Of a stretch of DNA of 19,066 bases, positions 8,582 through 19,066 are shown piece after piece (positions within the stretch are counted from its first letter, which is position 1; each line of letters begins with the position of its first letter). The stretch is from Calditrichia bacterium. Lineage in GTDB: Bacteria; Calditrichota; Calditrichia; RBG-13-44-9. Below the pieces are notes generated by a model, which was given only the letters and a program-made list of their open reading frames with translations, was not told the origin of the DNA and did no database searches. The position numbers were made by a program, and so were the translations under genes. The stretch lies in contig JARRQT010000114.1 in the NCBI GenBank assembly GCA_037381445.1, positions 1 to 19,066 of the forward strand. Direction: 5' to 3'.

Positions 8582-8842
8582 CTAAGACCCGGTTTCCTTT
8601 AATTTTTCAATCTGTTGATCGGCATGATAGGAGCTTCGCACCAGCGGACCGCTTTCCACATGGGGAATTCCCATGCGCTCTCCAATTCGTTTCAGCTCCC
8701 CGAATTCGTCCGGCGAATAGAATTTATCTACCGGCAGGTGTCGGGCAGTTGCCTGGAGATATTGGCCAATCGTTAGTATATCAAGATTGATGTTAACCAG
8801 ACGTTCAAATAATTCCAGCAATTCCTGCCGGCTCTCCCCCAT
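8582..8842 (-). CDS. lipA: Lipoyl synthase LipA, C-terminal part (after frameshift)
   Basis: MGESRQELLE...DILTIGQYLQ...HLPVDKFYSPDEF...ESGPLVRSSYHA (conserved RSSY motif). Confidence 0.9.
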   Translation of the reverse strand: MGESRQELLELFERLVNINLDILTIGQYLQATARHLPVDKFYSPDEFGELKRIGERMGIPHVESGPLVRSSYHADQQIEKLKETGS

Positions 8843-9374
8843 GGGCATACAGCCGGGGCACCACCTCCAGATTATGGTTAAGGATATCCGGTTTGGCGTC
8901 AAAGATTGTTTGCAGGGCCGCTGTATCTCCCTTTAGGTCGGGAATGAGCACCTCGACCGAACAGCCCGGCGTAAATTCCCTGATAAAACGAATGGTCTCG
9001 CTGAAAATAAAAGCGCCGCCATCTGCCAGATCGTCCCTGGTCACTGAAGTAATGACGGCATGACGCAGGTTAAGCTTTTTGACCGCGAGCGCCACCCTGC
9101 GGGGCTCTTCCCTATCTGCCTCACCGGGAACGCCGCCCTGCACCGCACAAAAGCGGCAATTCCGGGTACAGATATTTCCTAGAATCATAAAGGTTGCGGT
9201 GCGCCGCGACCAGCAATCCGCCAGATTGGGACAGCGGGCGCTCTGGCAAACGGTATGCAGATTCTCATCATCCACCAGTTTTCTGACATCCCGGAATTCA
9301 CTACCGCCCGCCAATCGTATTTTTAACCACTCGGGTCTTCTTTTAATATCTCTCTTTACTGAATTATCACGCAT
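8805..9374 (-). CDS. lipA: Lipoyl synthase LipA, N-terminal part
   Basis: RRPEWLK, CX4CX5C (CQSARCPNLADC), radical-SAM CX3CX2C (CTRNCRFC), VITSVTRDDL, NHNLEVVPRLY; SD GGAGGG at 9387-9392 (minus strand). Homology ends at ~8844. Confidence 0.95.
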   Translation of the reverse strand: MRDNSVKRDIKRRPEWLKIRLAGGSEFRDVRKLVDDENLHTVCQSARCPNLADCWSRRTATFMILGNICTRNCRFCAVQGGVPGEADREEPRRVALAVKKLNLRHAVITSVTRDDLADGGAFIFSETIRFIREFTPGCSVEVLIPDLKGDTAALQTIFDAKPDILNHNLEVVPRLYAHGGEPAGIAGII

Positions 9375-13853: not shown

Positions 13854-14534
13854 TCAGACCATTTCGATGGCAATAACCAAATCCTTTTCTATATCAAATG
13901 TTTTGGTCATCTTCTTTTCCAGTTCGATCCGGTTAACTTTTTCAATCTGGATTGTAAAATTGTTCTGGTCGGTGGTTTTCTCCAGAAGAATTCCTTCCGT
14001 ATTCAATGTCCCTTTTTGCTTCTCATCATAAAAAGCAACAATAACCCGGTCTTTAACATCCAGGGCAGTCAAAATTTCCCGAAGCTCATCCAGATTTCTT
14101 TCCTGCACCAGGAGCTCTTCGTCTTTCGAGACAGTGATATCCTTTATATCGCCATCGCTGTATTTGAACACGATTATTCCACCGCCTTTCTTGGCATATA
14201 CCAGCTTCTCAGTGGCGCTTTCGATCATCTTCCGTTCCACATTAATGATTCTTCCGGTAAAGTCAGAGTCGGTAATGTCAATGATTTCAACAATGACCGG
14301 TATATCATCAACGGTCCCGTCATAACCGACGCGGGTAATTTCAATCCGGTTCCCGATGCCAATCTCACTTATTTTAGACCGGACCTTGTCGGGTGTCATT
14401 GCCCCCCGCCTTAAATTCGGAATTCTGGTTCTTTTTCGTTTCAGCGGCCACCAGAAATGCCTTTGAGCATAATTAGGACTCTCTTCAAATGAAAGGTTCT
14501 TTCGTTGGTCAAAATAGTATCGTTCCAATCCCAT
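13854..14534 (-). CDS. Hypothetical protein with two internally repeated beta-rich domains (alternative start ATG 14399, 181 aa)
   Basis: Long ORF with protein-like composition from MTPDKVRSK (14399, preceded by AGGCGGGGGG). The upstream ATG at 14534 also has a GGAG, so the start is ambiguous. Confidence 0.8.
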   Translation of the reverse strand: MGLERYYFDQRKNLSFEESPNYAQRHFWWPLKRKRTRIPNLRRGAMTPDKVRSKISEIGIGNRIEITRVGYDGTVDDIPVIVEIIDITDSDFTGRIINVERKMIESATEKLVYAKKGGGIIVFKYSDGDIKDITVSKDEELLVQERNLDELREILTALDVKDRVIVAFYDEKQKGTLNTEGILLEKTTDQNNFTIQIEKVNRIELEKKMTKTFDIEKDLVIAIEMV

Positions 14535-15984: not shown

Positions 15985-16013
15985 TTGACACTATATATGA
16001 GAGCTATTAAATT
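15985..16013 (+). promoter_or_regulatory. Sigma70-like promoter for the 451-aa hypothetical gene
   Basis: Perfect TTGACA (15985-15990), 17-nt spacer, TAAATT (16008-16013); SD GGAGGT at 16029-16034. Confidence 0.7.
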
Positions 16014-16041: not shown

Positions 16042-17397
16042 TTGTCTGAGCGGTTTCAAAAATCTTTCATTTCGGCACGGGAGTTTGTGGAAAGCTGGGA
16101 TAAAGAACTTTATGAATTGAATAATCTGGATTTTTTTATATATCTGACAATTAACCGTTTGGGGAATCAGCTTGAGAAACGTTTTTTTGTTCAGGACAAA
16201 GTTAAGTCTACTCTTTTCCTCGATTTTGAACATATGGGTACCGTATGTTTTAATATCGGAGACAGTCTGGAATTTTTTCTGGAAGAAAATTGCCTGGGTT
16301 CCTGTCCGCTGAACTGCCCCCGAAACCTGGAAGGTCGGGTGGATGTGGACAAAGCCCAGGTAGCAGACAATATCAAACGCAAACTCCGTATTTTGCAGTC
16401 ATTTATGGCCGGGCAACTGGACAAGGAACAGTGCCTGCGGATGGACCTTATGAATCATGTCATTCTGGACACGCTTCTTCAATTTTATAATGAAGAACTG
16501 GAGCTTGAAATCAAGGAAAATGATCCGGATCTGCTGGAGCTGGCAGAATTTATGGAGGAAGTCCTTATAGAATTTATCCGCTTTGAGGGACAGACCCTGC
16601 TGAGCAGACCTTTTGAAATAGCCCTGAATTACTTCGAAGAACTATTACAAACTGAGGCAGATGAAGAATCAAATGCAGAATGGTTCGACGAAGATAAAGG
16701 CTGGGAATCCGAGGAGGATTCGGAAGACTGGCAAAGGCCCAACGAAGAAATTACGGAGATCTTCACAAATTTTGTCTCGGATGAACATTACAATCCCGGT
16801 CAATCCGGCAGTGCGCTCATGCATGATATCAAGTTTCTGAATGTCTATTTGAAAGAACACGCCCATATCAAAAATATCAGGGAATTGAACGAACATCATC
16901 TGGCGGAATTTTTCAGTGTCTGGCTGGTTCAGGAGTTGTATCTTTCAGATGAGAAACAAATCCCCTTCATTTTTCGGGCCACGGCAAGATTCATTACCTA
17001 TTTATACCATCATTACAATATCAATCTTAAAAAAGACTTTTTAAAATATTACCAGAAACTGAAAACTGATTTACCGCGAGTCATTGAGGCGAGTCATCTG
17101 TTTTTGGATGATTACAATCTGCTGGACATTCTGCTTACGCCGGAGAATGGCGAAGGTGAAGAGCGAACCGGGTTCTTTGAAATCACTCAAATTCATGATC
17201 GAGGTTCCCGCAAAGTGGACCTGAGGGAGATAAATCTATTCGAGCAGTTAAATGAAACCGTCATTAATTCCGCAGCTTTCTCCAAATTGAAAAAGGGTGA
17301 TATTATCCATGCCGGTGTTTTGAAAAAAGAGGGAGGCTGGGAGGTTCTGGAGATCCAGTTTGTATATCCTGCTTTAGCGAAGGAATATCTGGGATAA
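16042..17397 (+). CDS. Hypothetical acidic protein with Cys cluster (CX3CX3C), integrase core-binding-like helical region and C-terminal beta domain
   Basis: 451-aa ORF with a TTG start, strong SD and promoter. No enzyme family recognised. Confidence 0.85.
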   Translation: MSERFQKSFISAREFVESWDKELYELNNLDFFIYLTINRLGNQLEKRFFVQDKVKSTLFLDFEHMGTVCFNIGDSLEFFLEENCLGSCPLNCPRNLEGRVDVDKAQVADNIKRKLRILQSFMAGQLDKEQCLRMDLMNHVILDTLLQFYNEELELEIKENDPDLLELAEFMEEVLIEFIRFEGQTLLSRPFEIALNYFEELLQTEADEESNAEWFDEDKGWESEEDSEDWQRPNEEITEIFTNFVSDEHYNPGQSGSALMHDIKFLNVYLKEHAHIKNIRELNEHHLAEFFSVWLVQELYLSDEKQIPFIFRATARFITYLYHHYNINLKKDFLKYYQKLKTDLPRVIEASHLFLDDYNLLDILLTPENGEGEERTGFFEITQIHDRGSRKVDLREINLFEQLNETVINSAAFSKLKKGDIIHAGVLKKEGGWEVLEIQFVYPALAKEYLG

Positions 17398-17438: not shown

Positions 17439-17467
17439 TTGATTTTAAAATGTCTTGAGCTTAAATT
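17439..17467 (+). promoter_or_regulatory. Sigma70-like promoter of the candidate sRNA
   Basis: TTGATT (17439-17444), 17-nt spacer, TAAATT (17462-17467). Predicted +1 is G17474, the first base of the stem. Confidence 0.6.
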
Positions 17468-17473
17468 GAAAAC

Positions 17474-17573
17474 GGTGATGGGGCTCTCCCCTCAAAGAAA
17501 CCTCCCTCCCAAAAAATAAATTTTAATTTGGCCCCATCGCCATAAAGGGACATCAGAGGATGTCCCTTTTTTT
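17474..17573 (+). ncRNA. Candidate small regulatory RNA with C-rich anti-SD loop
   Basis: Stem GGTGATGGGGCT (17474-17485) pairs with GGCCCCATCGCC (17530-17541), 12 bp including 2 G-U. The loop contains CTCCCCTC and ACCTCCCTCCC. A terminator follows and there is no credible ORF with an RBS. Confidence 0.65.
17544..17573 (+). terminator. Rho-independent terminator
   Basis: Perfect hairpin AAAGGGACATC-AGAG-GATGTCCCTTT with a T7 run at 17567-17573. Confidence 0.88.
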
Positions 17574-17720
17574 ATTGCCTGCCATTTTTGTCGTAAATAT
17601 TCCGTCACAAAGAACATGCTTATGCTTCATTGGGCAATCCGGGAAATCGATATTTTCCGATTTCCATGGTAAAGTGAAATATTCAACTCAGACTTCCATT
17701 TCATCAATCAACACAATCTA

Positions 17721-17749
17721 TTGATTTTTCTCGAAATATTATTTAGAAT
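17721..17749 (+). promoter_or_regulatory. Sigma70-like promoter for acnA
   Basis: TTGATT (17721-17726), 17-nt spacer, TAGAAT (17744-17749). Confidence 0.6.

Positions 17750-17855: not shown

Positions 17856-19066
<1,211 letters not shown>

Follow-up and report, generated by a model that had tools for sequence, protein, structure and literature searches.

RsaE/RoxS RNAs are about 100 nt long. They are C-rich sRNAs that pair with Shine-Dalgarno (SD) sequences independently of Hfq, and the source describes two single-stranded C-rich motifs able to pair with SD-like sequences and a clade-wide occurrence (PMC6158497). The RNA considered here, from one order of Calditrichota, resembles them in these features and in that Hfq would not be needed; Hfq is missing from Calditrichota genomes (over the cut-off in 0/86), while ProQ was found in none of five genomes. 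It differs in lacking any Rfam match, in belonging to a Calditrichota order rather than to Firmicutes, and in holding both motifs within a single 44-nt loop closed by an end-pairing stem; neither a conserved regulator site nor a conserved TCA-cycle target was found for it.

Members of the cuckoo family (RSs0680/CcsR, alpha-r14) likewise combine variable stems with an invariant anti-SD-like motif in the loop, with several siblings per genome that often lie downstream of a hypothetical gene. As far as the source describes them, they occur in Alphaproteobacteria and consist of 2–4 short hairpins, each with CCUCCUCCC in its loop, and RSs0680a binds Hfq (PMC4615179). The Calditrichota RNA is instead one long-loop hairpin followed by a terminator, with the motif CCUCCCUCC, in a phylum without Hfq, and the suhB/mmgR model scored only 11.2 bits on it against a threshold of 41 bits. 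Yfr1 of cyanobacteria, too, is a small RNA found throughout a lineage, and its C-rich motif is unpaired and ultraconserved; its 54–69 nt place an 11-nt motif between two stem-loops (PMC2190773). That motif was missing from the Calditrichota RNA alignment, where the C-rich motif lies inside the loop. The iron-sparing sRNAs IsrR and FsrA also have C-rich regions that can pair with ribosome-binding sites (PMC11257911); unlike these and RyhB-type RNAs, the Calditrichota RNA has no Fur box, its pairing with aconitase is weak and not conserved, and conserved pairing with Fe-S mRNAs was found for neither acnA nor lipA across genomes. For Calditrichaeota, PMC9029176 gives one annotated sRNA in its Table 1. 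A literature search on Calditrich* small or noncoding RNA returned no description of this RNA, which the supplements of large motif surveys could nonetheless list.

The element together with its promoter occupies positions 17439–17573 of the window, i.e., of the whole stretch of 19,066 nucleotides that was analysed. Its parts, its neighbours and the loci elsewhere in the source genome (G000) that enter the argument were as follows.

16042–17397, plus strand: gene for a 451-aa hypothetical protein, the usual upstream neighbour (28/31 RNA-bearing genomes), outside the RNA
17439–17467, plus strand: predicted sigma-70-type promoter, TTGATT-17-TAAATT; hexamers and spacing kept in 26/27 orthologues
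17474–17485, plus strand: 5' arm of stem P1, from fold and covariation; its first base is the predicted +1
17486–17493, plus strand: C-rich motif 1, CUCCCCUC, consensus CUCYCCU, from column counts in 27 orthologues
17496–17510, plus strand: A-rich linker and C-rich motif 2, AAACCUCCCUCC, from column counts and unpaired probability in 27 orthologues
17511–17529, plus strand: A/U tract of variable length, from the alignment; unpaired probability 0.33–0.98
17530–17541, plus strand: 3' arm of stem P1, from fold and covariation
17544–17573, plus strand: intrinsic terminator with an 11-bp stem and a U-run, from the terminator scan and paired cells
17856–19066, plus strand: 5' part of acnA, which follows the RNA in a single family and has a promoter-like site of its own at 17721–17749
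G000 C254:1647-2807 (L439): gene for a Balon-like ribosome hibernation factor, patchily distributed (7/37 order genomes)
G000 C118:565-629 (L239), C225:2847-2907 and C271:4435-4492: three sibling hairpins, each 32–34 nt after the stop codon of a T9SS-tail gene

As read from the sequence, the promoter comprises a -35 hexamer at 17439–17444, a 17-nt spacer and a -10 hexamer at 17462–17467. P1 has 12 pairs, two of them G-U, and closes a loop of 44 nt (17486–17529), in which C-rich motif 2 itself is ACCUCCCUCCC at 17500–17510; a weak inner hairpin was predicted within the A/U tract of some orthologues. The 100-nt fold of 17474–17573 on the plus strand reached -38.3 kcal/mol (z = -4.44), and none of 200 shuffles was as good. 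The terminator, with its stem at 17544–17569 and its U-run extending to 17573, ranked first among 22 in the window. Totals for the window scans were at chance level, both for terminators (22 vs 23.0) and for promoters (31 vs 28.8), and the promoter, absent from the promoter scan's list, agrees with the consensus at only 8 of 12 bases; the case for it therefore rests on conservation. All of the parts named in the preliminary description (promoter, stem, 44-nt loop with two C-rich motifs, A/U tract and terminator) are in the sequence, as are the hexamers that it reported to be shared: the -35 TTGATT recurs at the acnA-side site TTGATT-17-TAGAAT (17721–17749) and the -10 TAAATT at 16008–16013 and 10453. 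A small minus-strand ORF behind an SD-like complement, 16 codons long here, was lost in orthologues on inspection by eye and was rejected.

The structure was retained through compensatory change. Among 18 orthologues, 100% of the P1 cells were paired and 6 of the 12 pairs were compensatory; with siblings added these values became 97.7% and 11/12, while the terminator stem had 91.4% of cells paired and compensatory change at 9/11 pairs in the 18 orthologues. For the whole structure, 95.9% of cells were paired, compared with 88.3 ± 0.6 for shuffles and 33–56% for slid controls. The loop consensus over 27 orthologues was CUCYCCU-(1-4 nt)-A(G/A)AAACCUCCCUCCY-A/U tract. In motif 1 the sole variation was a C/U exchange at 17489; in motif 2 the C residues at 17502, 17504, 17506 and 17508 were invariant (27/27), and the first CCUCC had a predicted unpaired probability of 0.81–1.00 in every orthologue. 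Loop substitutions were mostly C/U exchanges, so that pairing with G was retained. By its conservation and predicted accessibility, the motif 2 region (17496–17510) is most likely the seed of the RNA. Upstream, TTGnnn-17-TAnnnT ended 6–9 nt 5' of P1 in 26/27 orthologues, and at exactly 6 nt in 15; the spacer sequence varied and the flanks diverged while the hexamers and the 17-nt spacing were kept, and no further conserved upstream motif or operator was found near the promoter in the 27 orthologues. At the level of sequence comparison, the RNA element at 17474–17573 was confirmed as real, and the predicted gene unit of promoter, P1, loop and terminator was shown by these alignments to be under selection independently of its neighbours.

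When a 600-nt query was compared with 40 relatives by BLAST, strong matching was confined to the element (query range 17473–17576), sometimes with the promoter. A covariance model built from 18 copies was applied to 37 genomes of the order and to 49 genomes of other Calditrichota orders. This located the RNA in 31/37 genomes of the order, representing all three families, and in 0/49 of the others, where a single weak match (G073) was without the stem; a hairpin-only model also gave 0/49 matches outside the order. Nor was a diverged copy found behind the upstream anchor gene in other orders at the 20 loci examined. The six genomes of the order without the RNA were G012, where an assembly gap begins just 3' of the -35 box; G021, where the contig stops after the upstream gene; G006, G014 and G033, which are 83–86% complete and are missing the upstream gene too; and G030, which looks like a true loss. 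Scanning 185,579 genomes for the loop pattern produced 61 loci. Scores exceeded 60 bits at 23 of them and were no higher than 21.8 at the remaining 38; 18 of the high scorers carry Calditrichota names, and five more seem, judging by their scores and coordinates, to belong to the same order. Metagenome matches to the loop pattern scored with the model in 12 of 13 cases; phage copies were rejected, given that 0/4 viral pattern matches scored.

No known family was matched. In the window scan with Rfam 15 the locus had no match at E ≤ 10, the best score in a 171-nt scan was 21 bits against a 60-bit threshold, and there were no matches at gathering threshold in six orthologue or sibling loci. Possible look-alikes (the fluoride riboswitch, Y RNA and SRP) had no Rfam match and were discarded. 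Two expectations of the preliminary description were borne out by these comparisons, namely that Rfam would hold no counterpart, at the locus or in the six further loci, and that homologues would preserve the stem and loop, which they do within the order. The RNA is a new family of an already known kind.

The preferred reading, to which a probability of roughly 60% is attached, is that the RNA acts in trans and independently of Hfq, its C-rich loop pairing with SD sequences and likely blocking translation. Transcription would start from a housekeeping-type promoter; P1 may clamp and protect the RNA ends while displaying the loop; AAACCUCC would pair with GGAGG and a U-rich spacer, reaching the start codon; and initiation on target mRNAs, with hpf as the best candidate, would thereby be blocked. 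An undescribed trans-acting sRNA had been suggested from the window sequence; of that suggestion, the self-contained, conserved unit with exposed C-rich seeds stands, and base pairing in trans is inferred.

Candidate targets were sought through the complement of the loop. GGAGGTTTYT occurs at the start of six source-genome genes, encoding an S46 peptidase, hpf, glucose dehydrogenase, dnaK, a sigma-70 factor and a baeRF protein. For hpf, which was chosen post hoc after these six matches had been seen and whose occurrences in kin are not independent, GGAGG[R]TTT was present at the start in 22/30 RNA-bearing genomes against 0/33 outgroup genomes. Within the group, the same pattern was found at khpA in 7/29, dnaK in 6/25, the upstream gene in 2/27 and rplS in 0/20, and the background in the source genome was 31 of 661 GGAGG genes. 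In fixed register, spacer positions 2–4 of hpf were paired in 89, 86 and 75% of 28 in-group genomes, compared with 19, 31 and 66% of 32 outgroup genomes. The predicted source-genome duplex has 13 pairs (-17.0 kcal/mol) and spans -10 to +4. Beside CCUCC, the RNAs of G008 and G016 have U rather than A, matched in hpf by A rather than U, while their sister genomes G013 and G015 retain A in the RNA and U in hpf; across 28 genomes only 57% are paired at this switch position, with mismatches in G028, G032, G018, G017 and G019. Part of what is seen at hpf can be put down to common descent, since in other highly expressed genes, too, the spacer is inherited within families.

Pairing energies did not single out hpf, which ranked only 196 of 4083 in the source genome. 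Mean cognate energies were alike for hpf (-13.4), khpA (-13.6), dnaK (-13.5) and the upstream gene (-13.4); any GGAGG gene pairs with the loop about equally well. Cognate and non-cognate pairing of hpf did not differ across 30 genomes (p = 0.46). As targets, dnaK (pattern 6/25; cognate test p = 0.22) and an rpoD-like gene (pattern kept in G009, pre-set form absent in G008, G016, G013 and G015) were both rejected. A limited literature search found no sRNA that represses hpf, as judged by titles and abstracts. On the strength of its start-site patterns, hpf is the best lead and a possible, if doubtful, true target. Between 45 and 60 nt 5' of the hpf start, in-group and outgroup genomes alike have CAUCC/CACCC followed by a GC-rich stretch (L303-L332, L363-L396), and an A/C-rich unstructured tract follows this conserved motif.

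A wider set of co-evolving targets was also considered. In the first batch of a clade-swap test, counted over the first 30 loci of 46, 52, 31 and 67 matches and including the genes that had prompted the idea, the cognate sets gave 4/9 and 2/6, compared with 0/11 twice for the non-cognate sets. On fresh loci, predicted in advance, the result was 1/10 vs 1/9 and the effect was not replicated; overall, the last set covered 55 of 67 among the matches listed. Matches without a source-genome orthologue or with an ORF shorter than 45 codons were dropped before counting. For genes with GGAGGTTT in the source genome, A-forms and T-forms numbered 4 and 1 in G008 and G016 and 0 and 3 in G013 and G015 (one-sided p ~0.07). 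The baeRF protein matches Balon structures (8RD8), and the NCBIfam hibernation-factor model matched it below its cut-off. This Balon-like gene shows the same U/A switch in G008; as a target it fitted 2/5 RNA-bearing genomes, the majority prediction failed, and it was rejected. In swap scores for 122 orthogroups, a set enriched by the pattern searches made here, the Balon-like gene ranked first and hpf third, within a symmetric distribution (23 below -2, 23 above +2, opposite tail +7.3). A broad co-evolving regulon was rejected on the failed replication and this symmetry. It seems unlikely that an Hfq-independent mimic of the 16S anti-SD end keeps ribosomes active by co-repressing HPF and the Balon-like protein, with co-evolution of the RNA and its targets and with a protein partner shared by the siblings at mRNA 3' ends.

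Other readings of the locus concern a protein partner or the neighbouring genes. A protein might bind the loop, with the stand-alone RNA as a decoy that titrates a C-rich-RNA-binding protein (e.g., KhpA, or a factor binding the 16S anti-SD end) off the same loops at mRNA 3' ends; this is improbable. The highest copy numbers under the hairpin-only model were 8 (G020) and 7 (G022), and several sibling copies are a hairpin and U-run shortly 3' of a gene; among 21 siblings examined, CCUCC was kept in 15 and lost in 6, and a promoter-like site was present in 4. In siblings the middle base of CC-N-CC could be U, A, G or C. An independent scan of the source genome for large-loop, G-poor hairpins with a U-run recovered exactly three, all sibling-like, against none in two shuffles of that genome. 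The same architecture thus ends other transcripts, including those of the T9SS-tail genes, and because siblings terminate other mRNAs a protein-binding role is possible; however, the three source-genome siblings look like copies of one module, and the main copy retains a strict anti-SD sequence. KhpA was over the cut-off in 36/37 genomes of the order, often in several copies, and in genus g13 a sibling lies ~19 nt 3' of a khpA paralogue (L241, L242; G022, G020). Against this, hairpins were found at 0/20 other extra khpA loci, so that a general khpA linkage was rejected and the association is one event in one genus. T. thermophilus KhpB is described as binding a C-rich 10-mer in vitro (bioRxiv 10.64898/2026.10.12.757534), although the portion of the KhpA literature covered yielded no sequence-specific KhpA motif, and no KhpB-sized match exceeded the cut-off in the KH search. 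As separate observations, many genomes of the order have 2–5 khpA paralogues, several directly 5' of a sigma-factor-like gene (L283-L302; G000 C194:3155-3394); a sibling also stands behind a khpA remnant (L251), and tandem siblings lie 450 nt apart in L243 and L250. The source genome has two CsrA genes and two Fur-family genes.

Gene order bears on the readings in cis. Of 27 loci, 9 have acnA next downstream and 10 a radical SAM/SPASM gene; a different gene on the same strand follows in 4, and in the last 4 the next gene is convergent or lacking. The radical SAM/SPASM start codon is 10–37 nt 3' of the terminator in 9 of its 10 loci, leaving no room for a promoter; the terminator may therefore also limit read-through, and G030, without the RNA, has both genes directly adjacent. 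These facts would suit a cis-acting leader or attenuator limiting read-through into the radical SAM/SPASM gene of an ancestral operon, a rather remote prospect given that the loop was not predicted to form a competitive antiterminator (loop to terminator arm, -7.4 kcal/mol; terminator stem, -17.6 kcal/mol) and was equally conserved in the 18/27 loci with a convergent next gene, no next gene or one more than 100 nt away. That the RNA is nothing more than the upstream gene's 3' end with its terminator is the least credible reading: the upstream gene is co-oriented in 28/31 genomes, its stop ~50–400 nt away, but the promoter is conserved at fixed spacing to P1, the loop is near-invariant, and G004 keeps promoter and RNA behind another upstream gene. 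The independence from acnA suggested at the outset was upheld by loci that keep the RNA with other, convergent or no downstream genes; acnA follows at 118–542 nt in its 9/27 loci, all of one family, and this adjacency is accordingly attributed to local rearrangement. Control of Fe-S enzymes, also suggested there, was not upheld. A Fur-controlled iron-sparing sRNA against aconitase, lipoyl synthase and other Fe-S enzymes would agree with the two Fur-family genes, the Fe-S proteins encoded downstream in 19/27 loci and the lipA match in the source genome, and is nevertheless very unlikely. As first described, lipA matches strongly here and acnA weakly (-22.8 and -7.2 kcal/mol, ranks 42 and 3254 of 4043 start regions, some of them wrong in the home-made gene calls). 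Across genomes the means were -8.1 kcal/mol for lipA, with GGAGG in 1/20, and -9.0 kcal/mol for acnA, with GGAGG in 1/10; lipA was rejected as a target because its match is private to the source genome, and acnA because its pairing is weak and not conserved. The best Fur-like box at the promoter (11/19) was equalled by 51% of shuffles, and the 27 promoters gave 10–13 of 19 matches to a Fur-box consensus, which is chance level in the source genome.

Several features of the window were recorded besides. The lipA gene at 8582–9374 (minus strand) is split between two frames near 8830–8850 and is missing ~30 residues present in G009; its open frame of 189 aa, compared with ~290 in relatives, reflects either an assembly error or a pseudogene, and a second lipA is on C112. 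A 226-aa ORF at 13854–14534 (minus strand) is without a Pfam family. The 451-aa upstream gene was present in 81/86 genomes of the phylum, including 53/53 near-complete ones; its protein belongs to no Pfam or NCBIfam family, its structural neighbours in the Atlas are unnamed clusters and weak SEC-C-associated folds, and it is a candidate phylum marker for Calditrichota.

The RNA is a well-supported new family from a phylum that has no Hfq and in which hardly any riboregulators are known, and it is in line with a repeated origin of C-rich anti-SD sRNAs. For pairing with hpf, G008 and G016 versus the remaining genomes constitute a natural allele pair. If the hpf lead were true, ribosome hibernation would have a direct link to an sRNA in slow-growing bacteria of sediments.
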